Numbered from the stretch's first letter, positions 1,386 to 20,466 are shown. The stretch is 64,000 nucleotides of DNA from Clostridiales bacterium UBA5888 (GCA_002431965.1 DJEW01000001.1:1504-65503), one strand, 5' to 3'. A program made the numbers and translations. The notes: generated by a model not told the origin, from the sequence alone.

Positions 1386-2963
1386 TTATTTCAATTTGCT
1401 TTTTTTCTTTCTCCATGCCAGTATCTGATGACCGTTCGGGACTTTTATGAATGAAAATCCGGAGCCGGTATCATCGCAAAGCTCTCTTTCGGAGACAAGC
1501 CTGCTCTTGCTTATCTTTCCGGACTGATCTCGCGGCATCTTATCTATCAGCTCGACGGTCTTTGGCAATTTATAATTGCTCAGGCGTCTGAAGCAGAAAT
1601 CGGCAAAGGAATAGAGCTTGAATTCCGATGCAGGGCATGCAGGCTCAATAACAGCATGCACTCGCTTCCCCCACACTTCATCCGGCAAGCCTATAACCAG
1701 CGCATCCGCAACCTGCGGATATTCCTTGATGAGATTCTCAACCTCCGTAGAATAAACATTCTTGCCGCCGGTGATTATCATGTCGCTCCGGCGATCCACG
1801 AGGTAAACATAGCCGTCGCTGTCTTTATATCCAAGGTCGCCCACGCTGACCGAGCCGTCCGGAGCGCTTTTCAGCTTTTGAGTTCCCAGCAGATAATGCG
1901 AGGACTTACTCTGAAGATTTTTGAAGAAAACATTTCCTGTCACGCCGCTGTCAACGGGCTGATAATTATCGTCAAGTATCTCTATCTCGCAGCCGAACGG
2001 TCTGCCAACGCTGCTGGGATGCGCAAGCCACTCGTCGCCGCGGATCGCCGCAATGCCGACCTTCTCAGACATGGAATAGAACTCGTACACCCTTTCTCCT
2101 CCGAGGCGCTCTATCCATTTCTGCTTCAGCCAGCCGGGGCAGGCTGCGCCCGCATGATGCATACACTCGACGCTGCTGAGATCCGCTCCCGCAAATTCGC
2201 TGTTGCGATAGATCTTTCCCATCATCGTCGGAACAAGCACAAAACAATTCACATTGTATTTTGCTATGCTCTTGAGAAAAAGGGTATCGTCAAAGCGCTT
2301 AAACAATACAATCGTGTCGCCCATTGCAAGCTCCATGAAAAATGCATTGCTGAAGAGGCTGTGGTGCAGGGAGCCGCAGATAAGGGCTGTCTGACCCGGA
2401 TGCTGCCCTGTGAGCATCTGCCAGGCATAAAAGTCCGGCAAGCCGAACTCCATCGGGATGTCTTCAATTATGATTTTCGGTATACCCGTGCTGCCGCCGG
2501 TCGCCGAAGCCCTTGCCGGAACCGCGCACACGTCCTCTATCTGCTCTTCCGGCTCGTGAAGACTGCTCAGAAAACGGTCTGTTATGTTGGCAGACCTGTA
2601 ACTGTCAGACCTGAGCTTTCCGGCAACGAAATTCGGCTTGATCTGCTCAAGCAGGAGTGCAAGCTCATTTTCAGGCAATTCTGCCGACAGTGTAAACACG
2701 CAGGCCCCGATATGCCACGCCGCCAACGGCGTCACCACGGCTGCCAGCGAATTGGGAAGAACAGTAACGATCCTCGAATTCCGTCCAAGTCCCTGCTCCT
2801 TGAAGTATGCAGCAAGCCTATCCGTCTGCCGCAGCAGCTCACCCCAGTTGTATACTGACTCCGCGCCGTCTTTTTCCGTGATTATCACGGCTGTTTTCTC
2901 CGGCGCCGTCGCTGCATGCTCTTTTACCAGCACGTATATCGGTTTTTTCTCTGTTTCCTGCAT
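1386..2963 (-). CDS. AMP-dependent acyl-CoA synthetase/ligase (ANL superfamily)
   Basis: Motifs TGGSTGIPK, GDLGYKDSDGYVYLVDRRSDMIITGGKNV and YKLPKTVELIDKMPRDQSGKISKSRL. Start moved to the internal ATG at 2963 (MQETEKK...), which is preceded by CAGGAGGAAAAA. Confidence 0.85.
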   Translation of the reverse strand: MQETEKKPIYVLVKEHAATAPEKTAVIITEKDGAESVYNWGELLRQTDRLAAYFKEQGLGRNSRIVTVLPNSLAAVVTPLAAWHIGACVFTLSAELPENELALLLEQIKPNFVAGKLRSDSYRSANITDRFLSSLHEPEEQIEDVCAVPARASATGGSTGIPKIIIEDIPMEFGLPDFYAWQMLTGQHPGQTALICGSLHHSLFSNAFFMELAMGDTIVLFKRFDDTLFLKSIAKYNVNCFVLVPTMMGKIYRNSEFAGADLSSVECMHHAGAACPGWLKQKWIERLGGERVYEFYSMSEKVGIAAIRGDEWLAHPSSVGRPFGCEIEILDDNYQPVDSGVTGNVFFKNLQSKSSHYLLGTQKLKSAPDGSVSVGDLGYKDSDGYVYLVDRRSDMIITGGKNVYSTEVENLIKEYPQVADALVIGLPDEVWGKRVHAVIEPACPASEFKLYSFADFCFRRLSNYKLPKTVELIDKMPRDQSGKISKSRLVSERELCDDTGSGFSFIKVPNGHQILAWRKKKSKLK

Positions 2964-3117
2964 TTTTTCCTCCTGTATATTTATCTGCCTTCGCCGCAGC
3001 AGTTTGTTGCTTGTTTCACAAACAATCATAGCAGTTATACACAGGATAGCTCTTCAAAATCTTCAATTTTTCTCTCAGCCGTATTTCTAAATTATCACAA
3101 ACAGATACCGTGCTTCA

Positions 3118-3687
3118 CTATATTATTGCCTTTTTATTGCTCTCATGCAGAAGTATCCCATAGAGCTCCACAACGTACATATACTTCATTTTGTTGGTGA
3201 AGTAATCTTCTTCGCTCTTCTGTTGGGCAAGAAATGCAAATATATTCTCAACCCGCTTGCAGTCCGCTTCAGATATCTGCGCAATTATCGCTCCCTGCGG
3301 GACAACGAAAGAATTCACCTTGACATACGGATTGCTCATCATGTACATATATATTCCGCTATCCATACGGCAGTATGCAAGACTGACAGCGCTCCCCTCG
3401 TCCGGCACTATGGAGCAGCTGTGAAAAGGTCCTACGCACACAAACGATCCCCTTTTTATCTCGTTCGCTTCATTATTAACCATAATCCTGCCGCAGCCGG
3501 CGGTAACTATCGCCAGCGTATTTCCCTCAGAGCTCATATAAGGCGTCGGAGCTGAGACCGTTTTTGCAACGCCGGATATGTTAAGAAGTGATCCGCAGCG
3601 GCTGAAATAGTCGCTCATTCCAAAGCGGACCGAGTAGTCGATATTGTCATATACTTTTTCTATATTCTCTGCCATACGCTCAGCCAT
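3118..3687 (-). CDS. cupin-like protein resembling an AraC ligand-binding domain, with no DNA-binding domain
   Basis: 189 aa with a beta-rich core (LAIVTAGCGRIMVNNEANEIKRGSFVCVGPFHSCSIV) followed by a helical tail. No HTH is present. Its ATG overlaps the stop of the upstream AraC gene (ATGGCTGA). Confidence 0.5.
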   Translation of the reverse strand: MAERMAENIEKVYDNIDYSVRFGMSDYFSRCGSLLNISGVAKTVSAPTPYMSSEGNTLAIVTAGCGRIMVNNEANEIKRGSFVCVGPFHSCSIVPDEGSAVSLAYCRMDSGIYMYMMSNPYVKVNSFVVPQGAIIAQISEADCKRVENIFAFLAQQKSEEDYFTNKMKYMYVVELYGILLHESNKKAII

Positions 3688-4909
3688 TCCTTTCCCTGCA
3701 TTCTTTTCTGTAATCGCTTGGCAGCTGCCCGTTTATTTCCTTGAAAACGCGGCTGAACGAGCTTACGGAATTGAAGCCTACAACAATTGCAATATCCAGG
3801 AGGTTCATTTCAGACGAGGCCAGCAGCATTTCCGAATACCTTGTGCGCAGCACCTGCAGCAGGCGCTTGAAGCCGATCCCATAAGCCTTCTGGAGCAGAT
3901 TGCGGATAATATTGGGTGAGAGAAATGTATCCCTTGCGATTTTCTCCAGGCTGACCTCCTCGCCAATGTTTCTGTACAGGTAGTCCACTACCGACAAAAG
4001 CCTGTCGTCAGCTATAAGGCCGCGGTACACGCGGTCTTTTCCGCCCGGGCAGAGATTCATATCCCGGTACTCGCTGGGAGTTACGCCGACAACCTTCTTG
4101 AAGCAGCGGTAGAATGTCACATCGGATTCAAACCCGGATACCGATGCAATATAATCCAGCGGCAAGTTTTCGCACAGCAAATATGACATTGCCGTCAGGC
4201 ACCGGTTTCTGCGCAGGGTCTGATCGTAATTGAGCGAGGTCGCTATCCTAAGCTGCGAATTGAGCGTTACCGGGTCGGTATTCAGCTCACCTGCCGCTTT
4301 TTTTATTGAACACCCATCGCGGCTGTGCATGGCAATATATATGCTGGCCTGCCAGCCCAAGGGGAACTTCTCAGCCGCTGGTATCTCTCTGCCGCCTATA
4401 GTCATGCCAAAGAGCAGGGACAGCCGCCCGAGAAGAGATGTCTTTACCATCGCCGTGCCATTGTCATAACGCGCATCTATATTGTTGAAATCCTCAAATA
4501 TCTGCCTGAACTCCTGAGTGCTGCCATCTTCGGGGTATAATATGGGTGACTGTGTGACTACGGACATTCTCGTAGCCAGGGGGCTGGACATGAACATATG
4601 ATAATTGATCAGAACATAATCGTAAGTTATGCTCCACAATTCCAGTCCGGTCTTCGTATCCGGTCTGACAGACAGCACCTGTGTTCCCTGTATCCAGCAG
4701 ACGCAGTCCTTATAAATTTCAAACGCAACTCCGTTTATAATAAGCTGACCTTTTCCTGCTCTGACAAAAATGAAGTAACTGTCATCTTCCATCACGGGCA
4801 GCATGTTCTGGCTCACCGAATGCTTGCACAGATGCAGGAACTTATTCGGCGCACAAAAAACACCCTTTACCGGTTTCTCGTAAAGAGGAATAGCTCTTAA
4901 ACTGTTCAA
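3680..4909 (-). CDS. AraC-family transcriptional regulator with two complete AraC-type DNA-binding domains
   Basis: N-terminal cupin-like region, then two roughly 95-aa AraC HTH modules (...YIASVSGFESDVTFYRCFKKVVGVTPSEYR and ...DIAIVVGFNSVSSFSRVFKEINGQLPSDYRKE). TTG start preceded by GAGAGG. Confidence 0.8.
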   Translation of the reverse strand: MNSLRAIPLYEKPVKGVFCAPNKFLHLCKHSVSQNMLPVMEDDSYFIFVRAGKGQLIINGVAFEIYKDCVCWIQGTQVLSVRPDTKTGLELWSITYDYVLINYHMFMSSPLATRMSVVTQSPILYPEDGSTQEFRQIFEDFNNIDARYDNGTAMVKTSLLGRLSLLFGMTIGGREIPAAEKFPLGWQASIYIAMHSRDGCSIKKAAGELNTDPVTLNSQLRIATSLNYDQTLRRNRCLTAMSYLLCENLPLDYIASVSGFESDVTFYRCFKKVVGVTPSEYRDMNLCPGGKDRVYRGLIADDRLLSVVDYLYRNIGEEVSLEKIARDTFLSPNIIRNLLQKAYGIGFKRLLQVLRTRYSEMLLASSEMNLLDIAIVVGFNSVSSFSRVFKEINGQLPSDYRKECRERNG

Positions 4910-5297
4910 AGCACTGCCTCTCTTTCATATAATAATATTATATTTTTAACAAAACCGCCGTGGAATTTCAAGTGTTCACACCCGAATTGACTGTTGGCGG
5001 CAATGTCTGATGCAAAAAATCCGTTTTTTGAAGAATAATCAATTATTTAATTTATATTTTTTGCGTACTTTCAGGCAATCTTCTTTAGATGCACAGAAGA
5101 AGTAAATGCTTCCAATATCTTAAATACAGCAGCATACATTGATAGTAACCATTCATTTTATACGCGATATATTGCAATAAAAAAATCAACTTGTCTCTGC
5201 GCCTGTGTCGATGACTATGTTAAAATAAACTCAATTCGTTAAGCAAAAGGCAAAGCAGCAGTACCGTCCACACAAAATTATAGCAGGAGGAAATAAA

Positions 5298-6596
5298 ATG
5301 CACAATTTACTTGAAGGCGTCCGCGTAGTTGAAACCGCCAGCTACATGATGGGTCCGATCGCAGGGCGCATCCTTGCCGACTGGGGCGCAGAAGTGATAA
5401 AGATCGAGCCGGACGTTGCTCACCCGCCCTTTGACGGCGACCGTATACGCGGAACCGGTCTTGCGCGCGGCATCATGAACGGTGACCTTGGCATATACTA
5501 TTTTGTCAATGGCAACAAGAAATCCGTTGCAATCGACACCAACTGCAAGCAGGGTCAGATCATTCAGCAGAAGCTCTGCGCGAGCGCGGATATAGTTATC
5601 CACCACCTCAACCACGCTGACCAGAAGAAGCTTGGCATTGACTATGCCACGCTCTCCAAGATGAAGCCCGGGATCATTGTAGCGTCCACAAGCGGCTATG
5701 GCATCAAGGGTCCCGACAAGGACCGTCCCGGCTTTGATGCTGTCGCGTATGCCGCGCGCTCCGGTATGCTCACAAGCTGCGCACCTGACGGTACGCCTTT
5801 CATTCCTTTCATGGGATACGGCGATGTCCCCTCCGGCTCATATTTAGCCGGCGCGATCATGGCGGCTTATATACACAAGCTGAAAACCGGCGAAGGCAAC
5901 AATGTTTCAGTATCACTATACGGTTCAGCTATCTGGACCGCCGGTCTTCCCATCATTTCCGCTCCTTACGGCGATCCGTATCCCACTCCGCTGGATGCCG
6001 GTCTTCCCTCAGCCAGAATGTTCCGCTGCGGCGACGGCAAGTGGCTTTACATGATGTGCAACGACTGGGATCGTTCCATCGTCAAGTTCAAGATGGTCAT
6101 GCCTTCGTTCCCCGAGGACGCAGAAAAGCGCTGGCCCAACTACTTTGCCGCAAAGGCAGACTCGAAGGGTATCGCCGAAATATTCGCCGCAGAGTTTGCT
6201 TCTCACAACCGTGAATACTGGGTCGAGAAGCTTACCGCCGCAAAGATTCCTTTCGACATCATTGCCGATTTTGCGGATATACAGAAAGATGTGCAGGCCT
6301 GGGAAGGCGGGCATCTCATTCACCCGAACGGAGCCGGAACAGAGACATATCCGTATGAGACCGGCATTCCCGTCGCTCCCGGACAGTTTAAGAACGGCGG
6401 TACTCCGGAGGTCAGCGTAAGCAATGTGGGCGAGCATACCAGAGAGCAGCTCAAGCTTATAGGCTACACGGATGAGCAGGTAGACAAGTTCCGCGCCAAG
6501 AAGGTTCTGACAGAGGGCGACCAGTATGAGCCTGACCGCTTCAATGTCATGAAGCCCGGGACATACTACAACAAGCTTTTCTCTGCACTGAGATAA
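5298..6596 (+). CDS. family III CoA-transferase (CaiB/BaiF superfamily)
   Basis: N-terminal GVRVVETASYMMGPIAGRILADWGAEVIKIEP signature. 432 aa. RBS AGGAGGAAATAAA precedes the ATG. Confidence 0.9.
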   Translation: MHNLLEGVRVVETASYMMGPIAGRILADWGAEVIKIEPDVAHPPFDGDRIRGTGLARGIMNGDLGIYYFVNGNKKSVAIDTNCKQGQIIQQKLCASADIVIHHLNHADQKKLGIDYATLSKMKPGIIVASTSGYGIKGPDKDRPGFDAVAYAARSGMLTSCAPDGTPFIPFMGYGDVPSGSYLAGAIMAAYIHKLKTGEGNNVSVSLYGSAIWTAGLPIISAPYGDPYPTPLDAGLPSARMFRCGDGKWLYMMCNDWDRSIVKFKMVMPSFPEDAEKRWPNYFAAKADSKGIAEIFAAEFASHNREYWVEKLTAAKIPFDIIADFADIQKDVQAWEGGHLIHPNGAGTETYPYETGIPVAPGQFKNGGTPEVSVSNVGEHTREQLKLIGYTDEQVDKFRAKKVLTEGDQYEPDRFNVMKPGTYYNKLFSALR

Positions 6597-6716
6597 CGTC
6601 TTTCAGCGCAGTGCACCCACGGCTGACAGCCGTGCGTCCCTGTCAGCCATGGGGATCGCGCGGGCATACTTTGCCGTCTTGCAAAGCCCGATACAAAAGT
6701 ATAAGTATATCTCAAA

Positions 6717-6759
6717 CTCCCGCGTGCTGTCAGCCATCGGCAGTCCGCGGGAGCTTTTT
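6717..6759 (+). terminator. hairpin terminator between convergent genes
   Basis: ctcccgcg ... cgcgggag stem followed by CTTTTT. It lies between the stops of the 5298..6596 and 6758..8173 genes. Confidence 0.4.
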
Positions 6760-8173
6760 ACAGCAGATGTATGCACCTTGCGATATAGTCAGCCGCCTCC
6801 TGACCGGTAAGGCACTGCTCGGGCGGAAGTTTCTGCATATGATCCAGCCACATGTTGAGCTGCCTTATCATCGCACTGCCGGAGATGGAATATACCGTCT
6901 GGTTTTCCCCGCCGCGCAGATTCATGGCAAACGCCGTGTGCTGGTTTGTAAAGACCGACACCGAAAGATCATCATAATTGCAGATCTTATTCTGGGTGGG
7001 CAGAATATACACCTGTCCGGGGTTCCTTTTCAGCTGCGCCGCCATATTTTTCAGGTGCTGCAGCCTGTCCTCGGGCGGCACCTCTATAAGCCCACCCATC
7101 ACCATGAGCCGCCCGGTATAGATATAGTCCACAAGAGCAAGCTGGTATATCAGGACAGACTCAAAGAAATCGGAGCCGTTGAAAAAAAACTGCATCTCAC
7201 TGGCAAGCTCAGGATGCATTGCAGCGAACTTTTTCTTCAGACTGTCAGGGAGGAAAAACGGCTGCATCCGATCAAGCAGGGAGCGGCAATGCGGCTGGAT
7301 AAGAAAATCGAGAAAATACTTCTTTTCCATCAGCTGCTTAATGCTTACCGCCTTTGCCGCCGGAAGTCTGTCGCGGATATAGGCATCCGCCGAGCTGCAG
7401 TAGCGCTCGATAATATTTCTGTCTCCCGACTCCAGCAGATGCACCTCTCTGGAAAACGGCTCCCGGATATATTGCAGGAGCAGTGCGTCCCGGATAAGAT
7501 ACACATAGCCTGTTCTGTCGAGGCGCGCCCCATAGAATTCATAGCGTATTTTCCTGCCCAGTCCCATCAGATAGCAGAACGAACGGCATGAAATATCGGT
7601 CCTCGATCCGAAATCATCCATATCTATAAACTGTATCACGCGCAGCTCAGTCCCTGCCGGAAGAATATCTGTGACCCGCCCGAAAAACGAATCATTGTTC
7701 TTGAACTGGATATGTATCGGCGTCGTACATATCATGTCCAGCCGCCTGGCAGGCGGCGTTTGCTGCAGCGCAGTGAAAATACTTTCAGGAAACAACGCAA
7801 TATCCTTCACAGGACCGATCATAGCGTTTTCCCTTCCGGTTTTCTCCGGCGCGGGAGCGCGCTTTTTCCGCTCTTCGACCAGCGCGGCGGCAAGCATTGA
7901 AGCAAGCGCGCCTGAAAACGCCGCGTCTGTCAGGTTATCGCATTCAAGATTAAACTGTCCCGCTATCCGCGCCCGCACATCAGGATCCGTGTTCTCCGTC
8001 AGATACGCCGCGATCTTCATAAACAGCTCGTCGTTGTTGCGCAGCGCAGGGAGTTTCACTCCGTTTACCCACCGGCTGATATAAGAGGGATCATATCCGA
8101 GCGCGTCGGCAAGATTGCAGCGTTTTACGCCGCACAGCTTTGTCAGCTCCTGCAATGTTCTGCCAAATGTCAT
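6758..8173 (-). CDS. XRE-family HTH transcriptional regulator with a large uncharacterised C-terminal domain
   Basis: N-terminus MTFGRTLQELTKLCGVKRCNLADALGYDPSYISRWVNG is a classic Cro/C1 HTH. Start set at the ATG at 8173, preceded by GGAGGGCGATT. Transcribed divergently from the SnoaL-SDR-flavoenzyme operon. Confidence 0.75.
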   Translation of the reverse strand: MTFGRTLQELTKLCGVKRCNLADALGYDPSYISRWVNGVKLPALRNNDELFMKIAAYLTENTDPDVRARIAGQFNLECDNLTDAAFSGALASMLAAALVEERKKRAPAPEKTGRENAMIGPVKDIALFPESIFTALQQTPPARRLDMICTTPIHIQFKNNDSFFGRVTDILPAGTELRVIQFIDMDDFGSRTDISCRSFCYLMGLGRKIRYEFYGARLDRTGYVYLIRDALLLQYIREPFSREVHLLESGDRNIIERYCSSADAYIRDRLPAAKAVSIKQLMEKKYFLDFLIQPHCRSLLDRMQPFFLPDSLKKKFAAMHPELASEMQFFFNGSDFFESVLIYQLALVDYIYTGRLMVMGGLIEVPPEDRLQHLKNMAAQLKRNPGQVYILPTQNKICNYDDLSVSVFTNQHTAFAMNLRGGENQTVYSISGSAMIRQLNMWLDHMQKLPPEQCLTGQEAADYIARCIHLL

Positions 8174-9807: not shown

Positions 9808-11745
9808 ATGCCATCCCTTTTGTCGGCGCCTTTCAGAATAGGCAGCATGGAGCTGAAAAACAGAATGGTAATGGCGCCCATGGGAGTCACCGTGGGCAAT
9901 ATGAGCAGAAGCACCGTGGAGTATTTCGTTGAGCGCGCCAGAGGCGGCGCGGCGATGATATCCTGCAATATCCGCGCGTCGCTGTCCTTTGAAAGCGGCG
10001 AGCACTCAATATTTTTCTGCGAAGAGACGGAACCGCTTTTTGCGGAAATGACAAGGCGCTGCCACAGCTTCGGCTGCCGGGTCGCCGCTCAGATACAGCC
10101 CGGCGATGGTCGGATCGGCGGACCGTCCGTAAAATACAGGGTGCCCATAAGCGCGTCGGACTGCTCATGGATGCATGTGCCAAAGATGCGCTGTCACGCG
10201 CTGAGCATAGACGAGATACGTGAGCTTGAAGGCGACTTTCGCCGCAGTGTACAGGCCGCGATCCGCTGCGGCGCAGACTGCATCGGCATCCACGCCTACG
10301 GCGGGTATCTCACGGACCAGTTTTTGACCGAACGCTGGAATAAACGCCGCGACGAATACGGCGGTTCGCTGGAAAACCGCGCGAGATTTCTCAAGGAGCT
10401 CATCGGCATATGCAAGGAAGAGGGCGGCTCCGATTTCCCTGTAATAGTGAAATTCACCCCGGATCACTACATGGACGGCGAAGGCTACCGGCACATCGAT
10501 GAAGGCATCGCGCTTGCAAAGCTCATCGTAAGCTACGGAGCCGACGCGCTGCATGTGGACGCCGGCTGTCACGAGAACTGGCCGAACGCAATGCCGCCCG
10601 CCGGTATGCAGATGATGACTCTCCAGTCGCGCTCGGCAAAGATCATAAAGGCCGTCGTTGATGTTCCCGTGCTTACTCACGGGCGTTTCGGTGACGTGCA
10701 GAAGGCAGAGGCTGCGCTGCGCGACAGCGTATGCGACATTGCGGTTATCGGGCGCGGTCTTCTCGCCGATCCGGATCTGCCGAACAAGGTGCTTTCCGGT
10801 CGTCCGGACGATATACGCCCCTGCATTTCTTGCAACGAGGGCTGCATAGGGCGCGTATACAACAACGAGCCCGCTACCTGCGCGATGAATCCCCGCTGCG
10901 GGCACGAGGACGGAAGCATAGACATTCCAAAGCCCGCCGCGCCGAAAAAGCTTCTTGTTATAGGCGCCGGTCCCGGAGGGTGCATGGCCGCGCTCTACGC
11001 AAAGCAGGCCGGACACAGCGTTGAGATCTGGGAAAAAAGCGACCACATCGGCGGCAACGCGCTCAATGCCTGCAAGCCGTATTTCAAGACCGACATGCAC
11101 CGGATGATAAGGTATTTTGAGCGGGAGCTGCTTATTAACGGTATTCCCGTGCGCTATTACACCGAGCCGGACGCCGCAGCAGTAAAAGAATACGCTCCCG
11201 ATCACATTATTCTGGCCGCAGGCGGACGTCCGATCCTTCCCCGCTCCATCCCCGGTCTCGATCTTCCGAAGGTCTACCCCGCAACGGAAGCACTGAGCTG
11301 CTGCTGCGATGTAGGCGAGCGGGTGCTGGTCGTAGGAGGCGGTCTTGTCGGCGTGGAGACCGCGCTTCAGATGGACATGTGGGGAAAGCACGTCACGTGC
11401 ATTGATATGGCAAAAACCATTCCCTCCGAGCCCGGCTTCAAAATGAACGACATGCTCATGAAACAGTACATGCTCAAATCCAATGTGCAGTTCATGCCGT
11501 CCACAAGGCTTATCAGGATAGACGGAGATGAATTCACCTGCACTGTTACCGTTGAATCCGAGGGCGTGCAGCGCACCGTCGAATACGACACGGTGCTCCT
11601 TGCGCTCGGCTTTCTTCCGACGGCGGATCTGGCCGGGGAGTACGATTCGATCGCGCCTGTCACCGTCATTGGCGACAGCCGGCGTCCAAGGAAGATTATC
11701 TTTGCGATTGAGGATGCGCACAATGCCGTAAGGGCTCTCAGCTGA
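9808..11745 (+). CDS. NADH:flavin oxidoreductase of the OYE / 2,4-dienoyl-CoA reductase / BaiCD-BaiH type (FMN + 4Fe-4S + FAD/NAD domains)
   Basis: N-terminal FRIGSMELKNRMVMAPMG, Cys cluster CISCNEGCIGR, and Rossmann motifs VIGAGPGG and VVGGGLVGVE. Start set at the ATG at 9808, 8 nt after GGAAGGAG. Confidence 0.9.
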   Translation: MPSLLSAPFRIGSMELKNRMVMAPMGVTVGNMSRSTVEYFVERARGGAAMISCNIRASLSFESGEHSIFFCEETEPLFAEMTRRCHSFGCRVAAQIQPGDGRIGGPSVKYRVPISASDCSWMHVPKMRCHALSIDEIRELEGDFRRSVQAAIRCGADCIGIHAYGGYLTDQFLTERWNKRRDEYGGSLENRARFLKELIGICKEEGGSDFPVIVKFTPDHYMDGEGYRHIDEGIALAKLIVSYGADALHVDAGCHENWPNAMPPAGMQMMTLQSRSAKIIKAVVDVPVLTHGRFGDVQKAEAALRDSVCDIAVIGRGLLADPDLPNKVLSGRPDDIRPCISCNEGCIGRVYNNEPATCAMNPRCGHEDGSIDIPKPAAPKKLLVIGAGPGGCMAALYAKQAGHSVEIWEKSDHIGGNALNACKPYFKTDMHRMIRYFERELLINGIPVRYYTEPDAAAVKEYAPDHIILAAGGRPILPRSIPGLDLPKVYPATEALSCCCDVGERVLVVGGGLVGVETALQMDMWGKHVTCIDMAKTIPSEPGFKMNDMLMKQYMLKSNVQFMPSTRLIRIDGDEFTCTVTVESEGVQRTVEYDTVLLALGFLPTADLAGEYDSIAPVTVIGDSRRPRKIIFAIEDAHNAVRALS

Positions 11746-12860: not shown

Positions 12861-14387
12861 ATGGGAGCCAATACTGAACACTTCAATTACTTCAACACCT
12901 CCGAGGAGAGCTTCTTTACTCCCGGGCGGCAGCTTGCCGACATTGCGCACGTCAAGCCTGATGCGCCCGCAATAATCTATGTTTCTCCGGAGAACAGTGA
13001 GTCCGTTATGTCCTGGCGCGAGCTGGAAACTCTGTCCAATCGCATTGCATGGTATCTTATCGGTCAGGGCATAGGTCCCGGTAAAAGCGTCCTCGCCGCA
13101 CTCCCCAACATTCCCACGCATATAGCGCTTGCATTCGGCATATGGAAGACCGGAGCCTGCTATGTTCCGGTGTCCAACCGTGTGCCCCAGCGCAATATGG
13201 CTGAGATCTGCGAATGCGTCGCCCCTTCCCTCGTCATAACCAACCGAAAAAAGCCAGTCGGTTACCCGTCCCTCTCGACGGCGGAGCTGCGTGAGCTCTG
13301 CATGCCCTTGTCGGATGAAATGCCGCCCGACATACTCGCCGTTCCCAATCTCACCAACTGCTCCGGCGGTACTACCGGCAAAACGAAGGTCATCCAGCAG
13401 GATATGCCTGCCGGCGAGAGCGACGAGGGGCTCAAGACATGGTTTGCCGTGTCGGGCATGAGCTTTGAAATGCGCCAGCTGCTTGCCGGTCCGCTCTTCC
13501 ACGGCGCCCCGCATTCCGCCGCTTTCAACGGTCTCTACTGCGGCAACACCATTGTAATGCCTGCAAATCTCGACCCTGAGACGATCGTCCGCTGCATCAA
13601 AAAGTATGAGATCGAATATGTGCAGATGGTTCCGACGCTGATGCAGCGCATCATCAAAATGCCCGGCTTCCAAAAGGACGATCTGAAGAGTCTGAAAGCG
13701 CTGTGCCATACCGGCGGGGTATGCTCCGCCGATCTCAAGCGCGAATGGCTTGAGGTGCTCGAACCCGAACAGCTGTACGAGATCTATTCAATGACCGAGT
13801 GCATCGGAATGACTCATATCCGCGGCGACGAATGGCTCCGTCATCAGGGCTCAGTAGGGCGGATACTCTGCGGAAAGATTTCCATCCGCGGCGACGACGG
13901 GCGCGAGCTGCCCTCGGGAGAGGTCGGCAGCATATACATGTCCTGGGGGGCGAACGCTCCGAAGGTCGAGTACAAGAACATCACCCCGATCGAATGCGAT
14001 GAAAACGGCTTTAAGAGCGTCGGCGATATGGGCTATGTCGATGATGAGGGTTATCTCTATTTTGCTGACAGGCGCAGCGATATGATAGTTACCGGAGGGG
14101 AAAACGTTTTTGCCGCCGAAGTCGAAGCTGCGCTTATGAAGCACCCCGCCGTGGTTGACGCGGTAGTAGTCGGTCTGCCCGACAGGGACTGGGGGCACCG
14201 TATCCACGCTATTGTGGAGACGAGAGCGCCTGTGACTCAGAAAGAGCTCATCAGATTTGCCCTGAATTATCTTATACCGTATAAGCTGCCCAAATCCATA
14301 GAATTTACAGATCATATCCCCCGCAACGAAAGCGGAAAAGTTGTGCGCAGTCAGCTCGTTGAAGAAAGCCTTAAAAAGGGTTTCTGA
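12861..14387 (+). CDS. AMP-dependent acyl-CoA synthetase/ligase (second copy)
   Basis: CSGGTTGKTK, GDMGYVDDEGYLYFADRRSDMIVTGGENV and YKLPKSIEFTDHIPRNESGKVVRSQL. Confidence 0.85.
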   Translation: MGANTEHFNYFNTSEESFFTPGRQLADIAHVKPDAPAIIYVSPENSESVMSWRELETLSNRIAWYLIGQGIGPGKSVLAALPNIPTHIALAFGIWKTGACYVPVSNRVPQRNMAEICECVAPSLVITNRKKPVGYPSLSTAELRELCMPLSDEMPPDILAVPNLTNCSGGTTGKTKVIQQDMPAGESDEGLKTWFAVSGMSFEMRQLLAGPLFHGAPHSAAFNGLYCGNTIVMPANLDPETIVRCIKKYEIEYVQMVPTLMQRIIKMPGFQKDDLKSLKALCHTGGVCSADLKREWLEVLEPEQLYEIYSMTECIGMTHIRGDEWLRHQGSVGRILCGKISIRGDDGRELPSGEVGSIYMSWGANAPKVEYKNITPIECDENGFKSVGDMGYVDDEGYLYFADRRSDMIVTGGENVFAAEVEAALMKHPAVVDAVVVGLPDRDWGHRIHAIVETRAPVTQKELIRFALNYLIPYKLPKSIEFTDHIPRNESGKVVRSQLVEESLKKGF

Positions 14388-14457
14388 GCCGATCGTGCAT
14401 ACATGAAAATTGCTGAGCATACGCCAGCAAAAAAGGAAAGAAAAAAGGAGAAAAATA

Positions 14458-15738
14458 ATGGAGAAAAAACAGTTCAAAGGCTGGGGCGTTCTGGTCGCCG
14501 CTTTCCTGATGGCCTTCATCCCCACCGGCATAATGAACAACTGCTTCGCGCTGTACATGGCTCCCGTATGCGCAGATCTCGGATTCAGCACGACAAGCTG
14601 GTCCATGGTCAACCTCATCGGTTCCTTTGCAAGCGCAGCCGGCGCGATGATAATCGCAGGTCTCTATCAGAAGAAGAACATGAAGATCGTAGCCGCTGTT
14701 GTAACCGTCTGCACTTCTCTCTGCTGGCTCGTTGCGACCAGGTGCACCGCTATCTGGCAGTTCTACATTGTCTTCGCCCTGTCCAACATCTTCCTCGCCG
14801 GTCTGACCCAGCTGCCCATCTCCATGCTCATCACCGCATGGTTTGAGGACAAGCGTTCTACCATGATGTCCATCGCCTTTGCCGGTGCCGGTCTCGGCGG
14901 CGCTGTCTGGGCTCCCGTCATTTCCAAGTTCATCGCCTCCGGCACCTCCGGCTGGAAGTCCGCAATGCTCTTCTCTGCCGCTGTCGTCGGCATCGTAATG
15001 GTTCTTGCCTCTCTGTTCCTTGTCAAGCGCTCTCCTGCCGAGTACGGCACCGAGCCTTACCGCACCGCCAAGAAGGATGATTCCTCCTCTGACGCGGCCG
15101 CAGCAAAGAGCTCTGCATGGGTCGGCGTTTCCAAGAAGGTCGCTACCAAGTCCAGCGCGTGGGGCTGTGTTCTCGCAGTCGTTATCCTCATCGGCTTTAT
15201 CTCTGCCGGTGTTACCACTCACGTTCCCAACTTCGTTACCTCTATCGCTCAGGACGGCGGCAAGCTCCAGGGCACCATTCTTTCCGTTTACTCCATCGTT
15301 TCCATCCTCGGTGTTGTAGCAGGCGGCGCATTCATGGATAAGCTGGGCATCCGCAAGGCCGTTCTTGGCGCAGTCGTGCTTGTCATCGTCGGTCTGGCCT
15401 GCCTGTACATCTACTCCATCACCGGCACCGTCGCTATCGCCTTCGGTTACTCCGTGTTCTTCGCAATCGCAATGTTCCTGCCCAGAGTTCTGCCTGCAGT
15501 TCTCATGTCCGCGGTCTTCGGCACCAAGGATTACGCCTCCATCTACGCTCTGGCCAACCTCTTCTTCCTCGTCGGCTGCGCTGTCGGCTCCGTGCTGACC
15601 TCCATCATTCAGGGTATTGCCGGTTACGGCGTCACCTGGATCGTATACATGGTCTTCGCAGTTCTTCTGTTCCTGGCCGTCTCAGGCGCTATCAAGGGCG
15701 GCGAGAAGCTCAAGGCTCAGTATCCCGAGGGAGACTGA
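14458..15738 (+). CDS. MFS transporter
   Basis: About 12 predicted hydrophobic segments. Start at the ATG at 14458 (MEKKQFKGWGVLVAAF...) after AAAAAGGAGAAAAATA. Confidence 0.85.
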   Translation: MEKKQFKGWGVLVAAFLMAFIPTGIMNNCFALYMAPVCADLGFSTTSWSMVNLIGSFASAAGAMIIAGLYQKKNMKIVAAVVTVCTSLCWLVATRCTAIWQFYIVFALSNIFLAGLTQLPISMLITAWFEDKRSTMMSIAFAGAGLGGAVWAPVISKFIASGTSGWKSAMLFSAAVVGIVMVLASLFLVKRSPAEYGTEPYRTAKKDDSSSDAAAAKSSAWVGVSKKVATKSSAWGCVLAVVILIGFISAGVTTHVPNFVTSIAQDGGKLQGTILSVYSIVSILGVVAGGAFMDKLGIRKAVLGAVVLVIVGLACLYIYSITGTVAIAFGYSVFFAIAMFLPRVLPAVLMSAVFGTKDYASIYALANLFFLVGCAVGSVLTSIIQGIAGYGVTWIVYMVFAVLLFLAVSGAIKGGEKLKAQYPEGD

Positions 15739-15828
15739 TAATCTCCGCACCGTAAACGTCAGCATGCATATGACATGCTGACGTGAGTGAAAATAACAAA
15801 ATCAGAATTTTCAGAAAGGATCTCAGCA

Positions 15829-17187
15829 ATGAAACAGATTGACAACAAGCTGACGCAAAAGTTCAGCGAGTACCCCGAATTCGGCGTTCTCAAGGGCGTT
15901 AAGGTTTTCGTGACCGGCACGAACATTGCCGGCCCCTTCGCCGGTTCCCTGATGGCTGAGATGGGCGCAAAGGTCCTTCAGGCCGAGGCTCCCACCATCG
16001 CATGCCAGACCCGCGGCACTCTTGCATGGTCCCAGAACCATCGCAACGAGTACTCCATCACCATCAACTCCGCCACTCCCGCAGGCAAGAAGATATTCCT
16101 CAAGTGCATCGAGTGGGCAGATATATGGATAGAGGCAGGTCGTCCCGGCTCCTATGCAAAACGCGGTCTCACCGATGAAGTATGCTGGAAGCACAACAAG
16201 GCGCTCTCCATCGTCCACGTCTCCGGCTACGGTCAGTTCGGTCCGTCCAAGAACAAGCCCTCCTACGACGTCTCCGGTCAGGCAATGGGCGGCTACATGT
16301 ACATGAACGGCGTGTCCCCCACTTCCGGACCGCTGAAGGTCAATCCGTATCTGTCCGACTATATCACCGCTTACAACGCCTGCATCTGCGCAATGGCCGG
16401 CTACATCAACGCCAAGAACAGCGGCGAGGGTGATTCCTGCGACGTCGCGCAGTATGACACCATGTTCCGCCTGCTCGACAACTACCCCGCCAACTGGTTC
16501 AACAAGGGTTATCCCAAGCAGGGCGAGCCCGTACCCTACCGCACCGGCAACAAGAGCGATCAGGCAGCCTGCTTCTCCTTCTACGACACGAAGGACGGCA
16601 ACGCAATGTTCGTTGCAATTGTCGGTCAGGGTCCTGTTGAGCGCGGCTATCCCATCATCGGCATGCCCAAGCCCGGCACCAGCCCCGAAGTTCCCAAGGA
16701 TTGCACCGGCTTCCCGCTCTTCGATCCGCGCGGCAAGAAGGCGGACGAGCTGTGCGCGAAGTTCTGCGCAGAGCGCACCTGCGACGAGCTGGAAGAGATC
16801 TTCAACAAGGCCGGCATTCCCTGCCAGCGTGCCTACGGTCCGGCTGACATTGAAAAGGATCCTCAGTATGAAGCCCGTGAAAACATTGTCGAGTGGGACG
16901 ACCAGTGCTTCGGCCGCATGAAGGGCATCGGTCTGACCAACATCTTCAAGAAGAATCCTTCCCAGATCGTTGCTTCCGCCCCCTGCTTCGGCGAGCACAA
17001 CCGCGAGGTTCTCGAAAGCTTCGGTTATACCGAAGAGGAGATTGACGCTCTCTACAAGAAGGGCGAGCTTGCGACCTGGACTCCCGCAGATACCGCGAAG
17101 AAGAAGAACTTCGTCGAATGGCACTTCTTCTGGGATCCTGAGAGACAGGCAAAGCGCATCGGTCTTGACTATCCCCCCAAGAAATAA
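15829..17187 (+). CDS. family III CoA-transferase, CaiB/BaiF-like (tandem paralog 1)
   Basis: FGVLKGVKVFVTGTNIAGPFAGSLMAEMGAKVLQAE, HVSGYGQFG, NPYLSDY and DVAQYDTMFRL. These resemble CaiB/BaiF sequences as I recall them. Start set at the ATG at 15829. Confidence 0.88.
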   Translation: MKQIDNKLTQKFSEYPEFGVLKGVKVFVTGTNIAGPFAGSLMAEMGAKVLQAEAPTIACQTRGTLAWSQNHRNEYSITINSATPAGKKIFLKCIEWADIWIEAGRPGSYAKRGLTDEVCWKHNKALSIVHVSGYGQFGPSKNKPSYDVSGQAMGGYMYMNGVSPTSGPLKVNPYLSDYITAYNACICAMAGYINAKNSGEGDSCDVAQYDTMFRLLDNYPANWFNKGYPKQGEPVPYRTGNKSDQAACFSFYDTKDGNAMFVAIVGQGPVERGYPIIGMPKPGTSPEVPKDCTGFPLFDPRGKKADELCAKFCAERTCDELEEIFNKAGIPCQRAYGPADIEKDPQYEARENIVEWDDQCFGRMKGIGLTNIFKKNPSQIVASAPCFGEHNREVLESFGYTEEEIDALYKKGELATWTPADTAKKKNFVEWHFFWDPERQAKRIGLDYPPKK

Positions 17188-17309
17188 GATCAGCACCAGC
17201 GCATAAGCAAAGATAGGCTGCCATTACTGACCTGTGTCAGCGTATGGCAGCTTATCTTGAATGAGCCGAAAATTGAATTGAAAATGCAGAAAAAGGAGGC
17301 GCAAAATAT

Positions 17310-18677
17310 ATGAGCTTTAAGAAAATTGACTGCAAGCTCACGCAGAAATTCAATGAGTATCCGAATTTCGGCGTTCTGAACGATGTAAAGGTGTTCGTAT
17401 CCGGAACCGCTATCGCCGGTCCGTTTGCCGGCTGCCTCATGGCTGAAATGGGCGCAAAGGTCCTTCAGTCTGAAGCTCCGACAATATCCTGCGGCACGCG
17501 CGGCACCACCAGCTGGTCTCAGAACCACCGCAACGAGTTTTCCATCACCTGCAATCCCCGCACTCCCGCCGGCAAGAAGATATTCAAAAAATGCCTTGAG
17601 TGGGCCGATATATGGATAGAATCCAGCAAGGCCGGCACCTATGCCCGCATGGGGCTTACCGACGAGGTATGCTGGAGCGTCAACAGCAAGTTGTGCATAG
17701 TGCATGTCTCCGGCTACGGTCAGACAGGTCCGTATAAATCCAAGGCGTCTTATGACGTTTCCGGTCAGGCGATGGGCGGCTACATGTATATGAACGGCGC
17801 ATCTCCCGACTCTCCCCCGCTGAAAATAAATCCGTATCTGTCCGACTATGTTACGGCGTACAACGCCTGCATGACGGCTCTGTCCGCATATGTCCACGCG
17901 CTCAAGACCGGAAAGGGCGAATCCTGCGATGTGGCACAGTATGATACGATGTTCCGTCTGCTCGACAACTATCCCGTGCTCTGGTACAACAAGGGTTACC
18001 CCAAAGACGGCGAGCCTGTCCCCTACCGTACCGGCAACCGCTCCGATCTCGCCGCATGCTTCTCGTTCTATACTACCAAGGACAACAAGCAGCTTTTCGT
18101 TGCCATAAACGGTCCCGGTCCTGTCGAGAAGGGTTACCCCATTATCGGCGTGGGCACTCCGGGTGTTACTCCGGGTCTGCCGAAGGGCATCCCCGGCTTC
18201 CCTCTCAACACGCCTATGGGGCAGAAAGCGGACGCCGCTCTCGCAAAGTTCTGCGCCGAGCACACCTGCGATGAGCTTGAAGAGATATTCAACAAGGTCA
18301 ATATCCCCAACCAGAGAGCTTATGAGCCGGGCGACATAGAAAACGATCCTCAGTACGCCGAGCGCGAGAATCTCGTCGAGTGGGAGGATCAGATATTCGG
18401 CGATATGAAGGGCATCGGCATTACCAACCGCTTCAAGAACAATCCCTCTCGGATCGTTGCCTCCGCTCCGTGCTTTGGCGAACACAACCGCGAGGTTTTG
18501 CAGTCATTCGGATATACCGATGATGAAATCGACGCCCTGTACAAGAAGGGTGAGATCGTCACATGGACGCCTGCTGATACCGCGCGCATCCGTCATCTGC
18601 CTGACTGGGGCTTTTTCTGGGACACCGAGCGTCAGTGCGAGCGCATTGGCATGGAATGGCCGCTCGAAAACAAATAA
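17310..18677 (+). CDS. family III CoA-transferase, CaiB/BaiF-like (tandem paralog 2)
   Basis: Collinear with the 15829..17187 product. By-eye identity is about 75% over the first 150 aligned residues. RBS AAAAAGGAGG. Confidence 0.88.
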   Translation: MSFKKIDCKLTQKFNEYPNFGVLNDVKVFVSGTAIAGPFAGCLMAEMGAKVLQSEAPTISCGTRGTTSWSQNHRNEFSITCNPRTPAGKKIFKKCLEWADIWIESSKAGTYARMGLTDEVCWSVNSKLCIVHVSGYGQTGPYKSKASYDVSGQAMGGYMYMNGASPDSPPLKINPYLSDYVTAYNACMTALSAYVHALKTGKGESCDVAQYDTMFRLLDNYPVLWYNKGYPKDGEPVPYRTGNRSDLAACFSFYTTKDNKQLFVAINGPGPVEKGYPIIGVGTPGVTPGLPKGIPGFPLNTPMGQKADAALAKFCAEHTCDELEEIFNKVNIPNQRAYEPGDIENDPQYAERENLVEWEDQIFGDMKGIGITNRFKNNPSRIVASAPCFGEHNREVLQSFGYTDDEIDALYKKGEIVTWTPADTARIRHLPDWGFFWDTERQCERIGMEWPLENK

Positions 18678-18773
18678 ATAAAACAAGGGTCGGGCATTCG
18701 CAGAGACAGTCTCGTCTCTGCGCCGCCCGCCCGCGCATAAAATAATTCTGCATAATCTGCAAAGGAGAAACAA

Positions 18774-19559
18774 ATGGGTAGACTCGATGGGAAGGTCTGT
18801 TTCGTTACAGGCGCAGGCTCCGGTATAGGTGCAAAAACCGCTGAACTCTTCGCACAGGAGGGTGCAAGCGTTATAATGGCAGACATGCATGAGGAAAACC
18901 TCAACAGCGTCGCCGAGGGCATAAAGGCCGCAGGCGGCGATGTCATGACGGTCGCGGTAAATATAACCGATAACGACGCCGTAAAAGCCGCCGTCGCAGC
19001 AGGCATCGAAAAGTACGGCAAGATCGACGCGCTGGCAAACATTGCCGGCGTCCTCGACGTGGCGATGAGACCTATCGACGATTTTCTTACCGCTGATCTT
19101 GATATGACCTTCGGCGTTAATGTCAAAGGAACGATGTATGTCACCCGCGCGATCGTCAAGCAGTTTGTCGAGCAGGGCTATGGCGCGATTGCAACAGTTT
19201 CATCTGTCGGCGGCGTGACCGGCAACGGCAGCGCCGCTTATACTGTCTCCAAGGGCGCGGAGATCTCGCTCACCAAGCATATCGCCCTGCGCTTTGCAAA
19301 CGGCGAGCAGAAGATCCGTGCGAACTGTGTATGCCCCGGCACCGTCATGACCCCGATGACCCACCGCGCCATGAAAGCAAGAGGCAAGTACACGAAGGCT
19401 GCAAAGGCAATGCAGGCATCCACCGCAAAGCACTCCACGCTGGATGTCGGCGCATGCTCCGATCTTGACATTGCAAAGATCCTCCTCTTCCTGTGCAGCG
19501 ACGATTCCGCGCCGATCAACGGGCAGGCAATTGTCGCAGACTACGGCGCAAATCTCTGA
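18774..19559 (+). CDS. short-chain dehydrogenase/reductase (SDR)
   Basis: VTGAGSGIG and YTVSK motifs. 261 aa. Confidence 0.9.
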   Translation: MGRLDGKVCFVTGAGSGIGAKTAELFAQEGASVIMADMHEENLNSVAEGIKAAGGDVMTVAVNITDNDAVKAAVAAGIEKYGKIDALANIAGVLDVAMRPIDDFLTADLDMTFGVNVKGTMYVTRAIVKQFVEQGYGAIATVSSVGGVTGNGSAAYTVSKGAEISLTKHIALRFANGEQKIRANCVCPGTVMTPMTHRAMKARGKYTKAAKAMQASTAKHSTLDVGACSDLDIAKILLFLCSDDSAPINGQAIVADYGANL

Positions 19560-19629
19560 TTTATATTCCTGCACTCACAACAGCTCCCAACAATGTAAAT
19601 AGTACGATTAAAGAAAGGAACTGCACAAC

Positions 19630-20388
19630 ATGAGCAACAGACTGGAAGGAAAAATCGCGCTGGTGACCGCATGCACCAGGGGCATAGGCCGCGCAATCGC
19701 TGATTTATTTGTCGATGAGGGCGCCAAGGTATATTACGCCTGCCGTAATATGGAGACTGGCAAAGCCGCAGTCGAAGCCGCGCGCGCACGCGGCGGTCAG
19801 GCCGAGCTTGTATACTTTGAGGCGCATGAGCCTGAAACGCACAGAAGCATGATAAACGAGTGCATTGCCAAAGAAGGCCGTCTCGATGTTCTTGTCAACA
19901 ACTTCGGCGAATCCAACCCCCGCAAGGATCTTGACATAACGAAATGCACCTACAAAGAGTTTGAAAAAACCGTGTGCGTTGATCTTTCGACCGTGTTCAA
20001 CGCCTCTCAGGAGGCTCTCAACAAGGCGATGATCAAGCAGCATTCCGGCAGCATCATCAACATCGGCTCTGTCGCGGCTGTCTGCCCTGACAAGACCCAG
20101 GTAGGCTACGGCGTCGCAAAGTCCGGCATTAACCACCTCAGCCGTCAGATGGCGCGTCAGGTCGCTCATGCCGGTGTGCGCGTCAATGTGCTTAACCCCG
20201 GCATCATTGCTACCGAGGCTGTCGCAAAATTCCTTACTCCTGAAACTCAGGCCCGCTACACGACCAACTGCATGATCAAGCGTCTGGGCGAGCCTATCGA
20301 CATCGCTTATATGGCGCTCTACCTCGCCTCGGACGAGTCCAAGTACGTCACTGCACATGTGATGAACGTCTCCGGCGGCTGGATGTGA
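19630..20388 (+). CDS. short-chain dehydrogenase/reductase (SDR)
   Basis: VTACTRGIG and YGVAK motifs. 252 aa. Confidence 0.9.
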   Translation: MSNRLEGKIALVTACTRGIGRAIADLFVDEGAKVYYACRNMETGKAAVEAARARGGQAELVYFEAHEPETHRSMINECIAKEGRLDVLVNNFGESNPRKDLDITKCTYKEFEKTVCVDLSTVFNASQEALNKAMIKQHSGSIINIGSVAAVCPDKTQVGYGVAKSGINHLSRQMARQVAHAGVRVNVLNPGIIATEAVAKFLTPETQARYTTNCMIKRLGEPIDIAYMALYLASDESKYVTAHVMNVSGGWM

Positions 20389-20456: not shown

Positions 20457-20466
20457 CAGCCTGTCA

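Follow-up and report, generated by a model that had tools for sequence, protein, structure and literature searches.

What does a gut bacterium do with a gene cluster that holds every enzyme class of the bile-acid 7-dehydroxylation (bai) pathway, yet in an order and with copy numbers that depart from the canonical operon? Such a cluster lies at positions 1386-20388 of a 64-kb stretch of DNA from Clostridiales bacterium UBA5888 (GCA_002431965.1 DJEW01000001.1:1504-65503), which was analysed at its full length and is referred to here as the window. Secondary bile acids affect host metabolism, the risk of liver and colon cancer, and resistance to colonisation by C. difficile. We read the locus as a composite member of the bai family from an uncultured gut Oscillospiraceae, in which a three-gene cassette, encoding a dehydratase-like protein, a short-chain dehydrogenase/reductase (SDR) and an old yellow enzyme (OYE) flavoenzyme, would add a dehydroxylation-type activity for a bile-acid variant outside the range of BaiCD and BaiE. 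We give this reading a probability of roughly one in two.

Pfam and NCBIfam scans confirmed the starting point of the preliminary description, that all bai enzyme classes are present within 19 kb in the order it gave (E-A-CD/H-A-B-G-F-F-A-A). The interval contains two AMP-dependent ligases, three family III CoA-transferases, four SDRs, and one copy each of an Oxidored_FMN plus Pyr_redox_2 flavoenzyme, a SnoaL_4 protein, a major facilitator superfamily (MFS) permease and an AraC regulator. No second flavoenzyme or NTF2 gene was found across the entire 64-kb window, nor any BaiE or BaiG homologue in the whole 64 kb, nor any homologue of baiE, baiCD, baiH or baiI in it other than the cassette genes. 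The claim of a single flavoenzyme and no second NTF2 protein therefore stands for the locus and the window, but may not hold genome-wide, since a sibling species, UMGS887, has both sets of genes.

The cluster is not a chance grouping, because the same arrangement recurs across assemblies and is collinear with the UMGS887 locus at 93% identity. The conserved gene order that had been sought in gut assemblies was found in the metagenome-assembled genome (MAG) GCA_002404685.1, an uncultured Oscillospiraceae, and in at least five ENA gut assemblies, as was the exact BaiB-like protein. Relatives of the cluster carry the labels uncultured Oscillospiraceae or Clostridiales. In UMGS887, a GTDB species representative (locus L007), blastn aligned window positions 6714-19030 with L007 positions 8196-20499, a span of 12.3 kb at 93% DNA identity; as position 19030 corresponds to the end of the fetched L007 locus, the collinearity extends at least that far.

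In the published bai cluster of Oscillospiraceae type, the half under barA/barB control is, judged by identity and gene order, orthologous to the right half of the window cluster. The order barA-barB-baiA-baiB-baiG-baiF of a related locus, L008, matches it at 83-87% identity. The window baiA is 87% identical to the L008 gene that follows barA-barB, its positional orthologue, and its promoter region of ~200 bp is kept in L008; among solved structures, BaiA2 (4is2) tops the matches of its product at 187 bits, with the runner-up at 166. BaiB, 49% identical to C. hylemonae BaiB, reaches 889 bits on the NCBIfam model NF038344 (cut-off 650), and its match to the crystal structure of BaiB, PDB entry 4lgc, scores 582 bits. 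The two tandem baiF genes are 73% identical to one another and 43-45% identical to C. hylemonae BaiF over the full length, and copy 1 is 85% identical to the L008 baiF. BaiF was assigned by identity, and the CaiB model scored below its cut-off; CaiB/carnitine, formyl-CoA and succinate-glutarate transferase identities were rejected as far below their curated cut-offs. These assignments uphold the proposal of a bai-related locus acting on a carboxylate carried as a CoA thioester, and it very probably handles bile-acid CoA thioesters.

The transporter did not turn out as described. Placed in the BaiG class by the preliminary description, it has no BLAST match to either C. hylemonae BaiG or L008 BaiG, and L008 has a true BaiG-type gene at the position where the window has this permease. 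Its best NCBIfam model is that of a conjugated bile salt MFS transporter, a weak match at 184 bits (cut-off 400). Two SDR genes follow the baiF pair. The first has a 79%-identical orthologue directly after the cassette in L008, and a search for a specific PDB assignment found none. The second matches 5epo, the 7alpha-hydroxysteroid dehydrogenase (7alpha-HSDH) of C. absonum, at 184 bits, with the next PDB match at 154; it scores 276 bits on the NCBIfam HdhA model (cut-off 350) and has a 48%-identical homologue in the bai operon of locus L032, itself at 332 bits on that model.

The arrangement of this half is known. A baiA-baiB-transporter-baiF-baiF unit behind barA/barB is the published layout of the dominant uncultured Oscillospiraceae clade, as in UBA11811 (PMC9426597, Table 1; PMC6692061); UBA11811 has two baiF genes (PMC9426597, Table 1), and activities of recombinant BaiA and BaiB were shown (PMC9426597, section 7). 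Thus the gene order and copy numbers are as first described, but A-B-MFS-F-F and the doubled baiF were already published for the Oscillospiraceae type. The window shares with this type (CAG:103/UBA11811) a 255-aa BaiA, a BaiB of 506-508 aa, a transporter, a 452-aa BaiF, a second baiF, an AraC regulator with a partner of ~190 aa (barA/barB in the published clusters), and the same family of uncultured gut bacteria. It differs in having no baiE, baiCD, baiH or true barA/barB, in place of which it has paralogs of barA and barB (36% and 28%); in its non-BaiG transporter; in the cassette and regulator inserted upstream of baiA; in two extra SDRs after baiF; and in a GC content of ~54%, compared with 62% reported for CAG:103 (PMC9426597). 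UMGS887 shows the full published layout (baiE, baiCD and baiH, then barA, barB, baiA and onward) around the cassette.

A non-BaiG MFS gene after baiB is also known from Eubacterium sp. c-25 (PMC8623032). Both c-25 and Dorea sp. AM58-8 (Song 2021, PMC8623032) resemble the window in spreading bai genes over several transcription units, with a baiA-baiB-MFS-baiF unit whose MFS protein is only remotely BaiG-like and with barA and barB upstream. In contrast to the window, c-25, a Lachnospiraceae-like isolate of 44.5% GC, has baiCD-baiE and baiH in recognisable form, and no such cassette was reported for it.

The three genes upstream of baiA had been taken as counterparts of baiE, baiA and baiCD. 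This did not survive: the SnoaL and OYE proteins fall in separate clades with full bootstrap support (300/300 and 200/200), and the trio co-occurs with canonical genes in UMGS887 and L032. On these grounds the SnoaL-SDR-OYE trio is a conserved cassette in its own right and not a diverged baiE/baiA/baiCD set; it has a promoter region of its own and a divergently transcribed, putative helix-turn-helix (HTH) regulator. A 279-bp gap separates the flavoenzyme gene, which ends at 11745, from baiA. Consensus scans, which are not decisive for operon structure, placed promoter-like sites in this gap (11746-12023) and terminator matches at the level expected by chance.

The SnoaL gene opens with a TTG start codon 7 nt past an AAGGAGG ribosome-binding site. 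In pairwise comparison with the reference operon (L059: barA, baiB, baiCD, baiE, baiF, baiG, baiH and baiI, the baiI product being named C. hylemonae by the sources), its product is 28-31% identical to BaiI and 19% identical to BaiE (E 1e-4). Its mean identity to BaiI sequences is 25-31%, whereas BaiI orthologues share ~45-55% among themselves. A neighbour-joining tree (Poisson distances, 33 non-redundant sequences, 300 bootstraps) separates the cassette, BaiE and BaiI clades with support of 300/300, 282/300 and 270/300, and the split that sets the cassette and BaiI against BaiE is found in 293/300 replicates. Consistently, among 1.84 billion cluster representatives a profile search returned only nine clusters at E <= 1e-30, and the next identifiable full-length match was a BaiI protein. 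The suggested BaiE/BaiI class is thus half right: the protein is BaiI-like and not BaiE-like. It nevertheless falls outside the BaiI clade, and its gene is the first of its own unit rather than directly after baiH.

Kinship with BaiE is visible by profile methods only; a direct BLASTP search with UMGS887 BaiE finds nothing. Aligned with hhalign, the SnoaL family matches BaiE at a probability of 98.8%, and BaiE (4leh, 4l8p, 4l8o) is the top solved structure by both sequence and fold, at 19-21% identity. An AlphaFold2 model of the protein (mean predicted local confidence, pLDDT, 94.6) has BaiE as its top three PDB fold matches (E ~1e-10, template modelling score ~0.72). Five residues invariant in the family, Y42, D47, H95, D118 and Y135, align with Y30, D35, H83, D106 and Y126 of BaiE, where Y30 is the general acid, H83 the general base, and D35, D106 and Y126 take part in catalysis or substrate contact (PMC12065433, section 12); Y54 of BaiE is not conserved. 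The NTF2 fold and the Tyr/His/Asp set of a BaiE-type steroid dehydratase are both present. Because catalytic residues, profile alignment and modelled fold match BaiE, the evidence supports a predicted enone-assisted dehydration of the BaiE type, and does not indicate which hydroxyl or stereochemistry would be involved.

The flavoenzyme has the architecture of the 2,4-dienoyl-CoA reductase/BaiCD type: an OYE barrel (Oxidored_FMN, residues 10-337), a four-cysteine motif as in BaiH (C339-x2-C342-x3-C346-x11-C358) and an FAD/NAD(P) domain (Pyr_redox_2, residues 384-614). Its PDB matches are 6qkg (NCR) and the 2,4-dienoyl-CoA reductase 1ps9. It is ~30% identical to BaiH (240 bits) and 28% identical to BaiCD (187 bits), compared with 74-88% among BaiH orthologues, and it forms a third clade of its own beside BaiCD and BaiH (bootstrap 200/200). 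It scores 341 bits on the NCBIfam BaiCD model, below the cut-off of 825, and the window holds no other BaiCD candidate. Two further identities were rejected, the long form of bilirubin reductase BilR (369 bits, cut-off 750) and the mycofactocin OYE (far below its curated cut-off).

As a pair, the flavoenzyme and the SnoaL_4 protein recall canonical baiH and baiI (C. scindens and C. hylemonae baiBCDEAFGHI), in which, likewise, the gene of an Fe-S OYE flavoenzyme adjoins that of a SnoaL_4 protein. Unlike that pair, the cassette proteins sit in strongly supported clades of their own, come with an SDR and a regulator, occur mostly without other bai genes, and coexist with true baiH and baiI in L032. 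The 471-aa product of the divergently transcribed gene has only a weak N-terminal match to HTH_3/HTH_31 (XRE; E ~0.001) and no PDB relatives at E <= 5.

When one genome per GTDB species was scanned with family patterns, the SnoaL family was recovered in 40 species, and the window proteins were mapped onto those loci. The SnoaL gene always lies next to its cognate OYE gene where the locus reaches far enough, and this adjacency is seen in the large majority of the 40 loci; the SDR usually lies there too. The SDR, 56-99% identical, accompanies the other two genes in most loci in variable order (SnoaL-SDR-OYE, SnoaL-OYE-SDR or OYE-SnoaL-SDR). A homologue of the 471-aa protein (23-94% identity) adjoins the cassette, divergently transcribed, in ~24 of the 40, and one subgroup has an MFS permease gene ahead of the enzyme genes. 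In the searched protein collection, the two largest cassette clusters count 906 and 529 member sequences, which is similar in magnitude to the 667 and 557 of the dominant BaiE clusters.

The strongest argument that the cassette acts on bile acids or very similar steroids is its repeated, independent juxtaposition with bai genes, within or beside which it is found in at least four different arrangements. It lies upstream of baiA in the window and UMGS887, after baiF in L008, after a BaiF-like gene in L033, before a BaiCD-like gene (40-45% identical) in L024-L027, and between baiG and baiI in L032 (UMGS893), in an operon baiCD-baiE-SDR-SDR-7alphaHSDH-like-...-baiH-baiG-[cassette]-baiI. Two of these arrangements also hold a canonical baiE, and one of the two holds baiI as well. 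Upstream of the regulator-cassette-baiA block, UMGS887 has a canonical baiE (237 bits to 4l8o), a baiCD at 795 bits, just below the cut-off of 825, a baiH-like gene, barA and barB; L032 keeps baiE, baiH and baiI together with the cassette. Since the cassette is retained beside these canonical enzymes, a non-redundant function is suggested, and for the same reason a distinct substrate is favoured over a duplicate 7alpha-dehydration.

In the window itself, where baiE, baiCD and baiH are absent, the cassette may instead do the ordinary 7alpha job. In this alternative it would have functionally replaced baiE, baiCD, baiH and possibly part of the role of baiA, and the locus alone would convert cholate and chenodeoxycholate to deoxycholate and lithocholate. 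The window offers no other candidates for these steps; baiA, baiB and the baiF pair, intact and 93-98% identical to their UMGS887 counterparts, would serve no purpose if a dehydratase and a flavoenzyme were missing; and the five BaiE catalytic residues aligned above are all present in the cassette SnoaL protein. A single flavoenzyme could serve several steps, as BaiH alone was reported to perform two successive reductions (10.1101/758557), and reviews mention 7alpha-dehydroxylating strains, C. leptum among them, in which a SnoaL_4 protein of low identity is the only candidate (PMC10382948), although C. leptum does not figure in the 40 species that the family patterns retrieved. Against this, UMGS887 carries the canonical genes as well as a cassette region 93% identical to the window in its DNA, and their union in one operon in L032 argues that the two sets are non-redundant. 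Moreover, in a related MAG (L055) the baiE-baiCD-baiH-barAB block forms a separate locus unlinked to baiA/baiB, so the canonical genes may simply sit elsewhere in the window genome. A search with UMGS887 BaiE, in which four close clusters were traced, mapped none of them to GCA_002404685.1 or to the samples bearing the cluster. On balance, we regard replacement as rather doubtful.

Returning to the composite reading, the analysis shows gene identities, the orthology of baiA, baiB and baiF, the placement in clades, and conserved residues and neighbourhoods; the chemistry, substrate and regulation of the cassette we infer from these relationships. The permease would import the bile acid, BaiB would ligate it to CoA, BaiF would recycle CoA from the product onto new substrate, and BaiA would oxidise the 3alpha-hydroxyl. 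By analogy with BaiA, BaiCD and BaiE, the cassette SDR would supply a 3-oxo group, the flavoenzyme would introduce one or more conjugated double bonds and later re-reduce them, and the NTF2 enzyme would eliminate the vinylogous hydroxyl as water. The cassette thus most likely oxidises, desaturates and dehydrates a hydroxylated 3-oxo-steroid, which is probably a bile acid. Its substrate would be a steroid nucleus that BaiCD and BaiE refuse, for example that of an atypical bile acid, be it 7beta-, 6-hydroxylated, allo- or of another kind.

Several points, besides the missing canonical genes, weigh against this reading. The functions of the cassette proteins are predicted, and the SDR received no specific PDB or NCBIfam assignment in the scans. 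No Arg of the cassette protein aligns with R146 of BaiE; three positions before that site is R153, an invariant Arg common to the cassette clade and BaiI where BaiE has Gly. BaiI, the closest named relative, is without verified function (10.1101/758557; PMC12065433); cholate can be dehydroxylated in vitro without it, and it has been proposed as a 7beta-dehydratase or an isomerase (10.1101/758557; PMC10382948; PMC12065433). No function can therefore be firmly transferred from BaiI to the cassette SnoaL protein. Finally, most cassette loci lie away from bai genes, some of them beside glycoside hydrolases or sugar transporters, and one comes from a goat reticulum MAG, so the cassette family as a whole may not be specific for bile acids.

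Two further explanations dispense with CoA; most cassette loci have no CoA ligase or transferase nearby. In the first, the trio with its HTH regulator, and in many genomes its own MFS transporter, would be a self-sufficient, CoA-independent steroid dehydroxylation cassette, a second system parallel to Bai that would be widespread in gut Clostridia and would remove a hydroxyl the Bai enzymes do not handle. Its target may be a 6-hydroxyl or the 7beta-hydroxyl, of which ursodeoxycholate is an example; neutral steroids and bile acids of the allo or conjugated kind are other candidates. We advance this proposal only tentatively; if true, it would give a first functional handle on the BaiI branch.

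The second explanation leaves bile acids altogether: the substrate, handled without CoA, would be a plant sterol or saponin aglycone, a neutral steroid or some other cyclic hydroxy-enone. What the cassette and the neighbouring bai genes have in common would then be an island responsive to steroids, not a pathway. The cassette is indeed self-contained in most species (regulator, sometimes MFS, OYE, SnoaL and SDR); some loci adjoin GH2/GH3 glycosidases and sugar ABC transporters, and one has a 3beta-HSD/epimerase-type enzyme instead of the SDR. Hosts include rumen/reticulum, chicken and mouse MAGs, and BaiE-type enzymes accept CoA-free substrates (PMC12065433, sections 12 and 15). This proposal is at odds with the four or more independent juxtapositions with bai genes, including the insertion between baiG and baiI; with BaiI proteins being the nearest identifiable homologues of the SnoaL protein; and with the cassette-linked MFS transporters, whose best match, if weak, is the bile-salt MFS model. 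We consider it unlikely.

The cassette is, in our assessment, what is new here, the baiA-B-MFS-F-F unit and split bai clusters being already published; no description of it was found in the text, figures excluded, of the open-access literature. According to metagenomic surveys, most of the human potential for 7-dehydroxylation lies with uncultured Oscillospiraceae (PMC6692061, PMC9426597). The locus shows the bai clusters of these bacteria to be modular, with an extra dehydratase/flavoenzyme/SDR cassette recruited repeatedly. If the cassette removes a different hydroxyl or takes other bile-acid stereoisomers, it would explain conversions that lack known genes and would help to assign a function to BaiI, which has been without one since the operon was sequenced. 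The scoring of bile-acid metabolism in metagenomes would change as well, as baiE and baiCD markers alone would miss the window genome.

Left of the synteny breakpoint nothing aligns with UMGS887: the canonical baiE-baiCD-baiH-barAB block of that species is replaced in the window by an arm (1-6714) of lower GC (0.46-0.50, compared with 0.53-0.56 elsewhere). The features of this arm and of the rest of the cluster are listed in Table 1.

Table 1. Features of the bai-related cluster and its boundaries, in window coordinates
Feature	Position	Strand	Basis or remark
Acyl-CoA ligase, distant BaiB paralog	1386-3029 (525 aa as called 1386..2963)	-	AMP-binding + AMP-binding_C
BarB-like small protein, 185-189 aa	3118-3687	-	28% to UMGS887 BarB, E 3.5e-22
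AraC-family regulator, BarA paralog	3680-4909	-	HTH_18 + HTH_AraC
Family III CoA-transferase, distant from BaiF	5298-6596	+	CoA_transf_3; 23% to BaiF
Synteny breakpoint with UMGS887	6714	.	nothing to the left aligns (blastn)
Putative cassette regulator, 471 aa	6758-8173	-	divergent from cassette; weak HTH match
NTF2/SnoaL_4 dehydratase-like protein, 167 aa	8522-9025	+	SnoaL_4 domain; sister clade of BaiI
Cassette SDR, putative hydroxysteroid dehydrogenase	9025-9786	+	adh_short domains
OYE + 4Fe-4S + FAD/NAD flavoenzyme	9799-11745 (also listed as 9808..11745)	+	Oxidored_FMN + Pyr_redox_2
baiA (3alpha-hydroxysteroid dehydrogenase, bile-acid CoA esters), 255 aa	12024-12791	+	best PDB match BaiA2
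baiB (bile acid-CoA ligase)	12861-14387	+	NCBIfam BaiB above cut-off
MFS permease, not BaiG	14410-15738 (also listed as 14458..15738)	+	MFS_1 domain
baiF copy 1 (bile acid CoA-transferase)	15787-17187 (also listed as 15829..17187)	+	CoA_transf_3; 43% to C. hylemonae BaiF
baiF copy 2	17310-18677	+	45% to C. hylemonae BaiF
SDR	18774-19559	+	adh_short
7alpha-hydroxysteroid dehydrogenase-like SDR	19630-20388	+	best PDB match 5epo
tRNA-Leu(UAA)	20665..20750	-	ARAGORN + Rfam; taken as right boundary of cluster

The ligase of the left arm has BaiB as its best NCBIfam model (388 bits, cut-off 650) and is 35% identical to the window BaiB and 32% identical to C. hylemonae BaiB. The AraC regulator is 36% identical to UMGS887 BarA over 403 aa, and the BarB-like gene overlaps its stop, as barB overlaps barA. 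The BarB-like protein matches no Pfam family; UMGS887 BarB has weak cupin and AraC_binding matches. Of the AraC-type regulators said to recall barA, therefore, one is indeed an AraC-family BarA paralog, whereas the others are this BarB-like protein of 185 aa and the 471-aa protein with its weak HTH_3/XRE match. The CoA-transferase (432 aa) has a 38%-identical homologue beside the bai cluster of L032. The composition of the arm suggests a second, separately regulated CoA-activation unit, which probably activates a second carboxylate substrate.

That the breakpoint removes exactly the canonical block seen in UMGS887 could also mean that the window holds a decaying or partial bai locus, in which baiE-baiCD-baiH-barAB was lost, the remainder performs only CoA ligation and hydroxysteroid oxidation or epimerisation, perhaps cross-fed with intermediates from the community, and the cassette is unrelated. 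Many MAGs in bai-positive species bins have no bai genes (Vital et al., PMC6692061), and partial Bai modules with community-assembled metabolism have been proposed (PMC13477222). The genes of the cluster, however, are all full-length and highly conserved, the locus is unchanged in at least six assemblies, and the repeated linkage of the cassette with bai genes elsewhere speaks against its being irrelevant. Decay is therefore a very improbable account of the locus.

On the right, a terminator-like hairpin (20662-20633, minus strand) lies beside tRNA-Leu. The acyl-CoA dehydrogenase at 20939-22084, put forward as a possible further member of the cluster, was rejected as such: it lies beyond the hairpin and the opposite-strand tRNA, no evidence ties it to the cluster, the model it matches best is that of acryloyl-CoA reductase (354 bits, cut-off 640), and a TRAP transporter comes next. 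The segment 20939-26420 comprises the dehydrogenase, a 245-aa protein without a family match and the TRAP transporter (DctP, DctM), and no Etf genes were seen adjoining the dehydrogenase.

Some of the loci recovered in other species have features of their own. The unusually rich operon of L032 (133-16914) runs from baiCD and baiE through two BaiA-like SDRs, the 7alpha-HSDH-like SDR (332 bits, cut-off 350) and a 169-aa SnoaL_4 gene to a baiH 85% identical to that of C. hylemonae. A baiH fragment, baiG, the cassette and baiI come next, and the homologue of the 432-aa CoA-transferase lies farther along. In three Oscillospiraceae loci with canonical baiCD-baiE (L054, 2541-5904; L055, 10610-15076; L063, 7025-8647), the gene directly after baiE encodes an ATP-grasp protein (PF14397), and behind it come a 164-aa SnoaL_4 gene that is not related to BaiE or BaiI, a second ATP-grasp gene and an SSF transporter. 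L054 alone has baiI after the SnoaL_4 gene and ahead of the second ATP-grasp gene, and in L063 a single 540-aa protein joins the ATP-grasp and SnoaL_4 parts. These bai-linked ATP-grasp amide ligases might bear on bile-acid conjugation. Several proteins of ~470 aa among the cluster representatives (P0270, P0280 and P0283) contain two or three tandem copies of a domain that matches the cassette SnoaL profile.

The remainder of the window encodes housekeeping functions, including IF-2, trigger factor and a transfer-messenger RNA (tmRNA), and is therefore chromosomal DNA. Rfam detected no riboswitch or other RNA element within the cluster. For the tmRNA, Rfam places a standard full-length molecule at 45358-45707 on the minus strand (154 bits), whereas ARAGORN calls a 640-nt 'permuted' form at 44811-45450, which looks like an artefact. 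Between 31745 and 37272 lie a glycyl-radical enzyme (pyruvate formate-lyase-like plus Gly_radical, 897 aa), a 315-aa open reading frame that is possibly its activase, and an MFS transporter.

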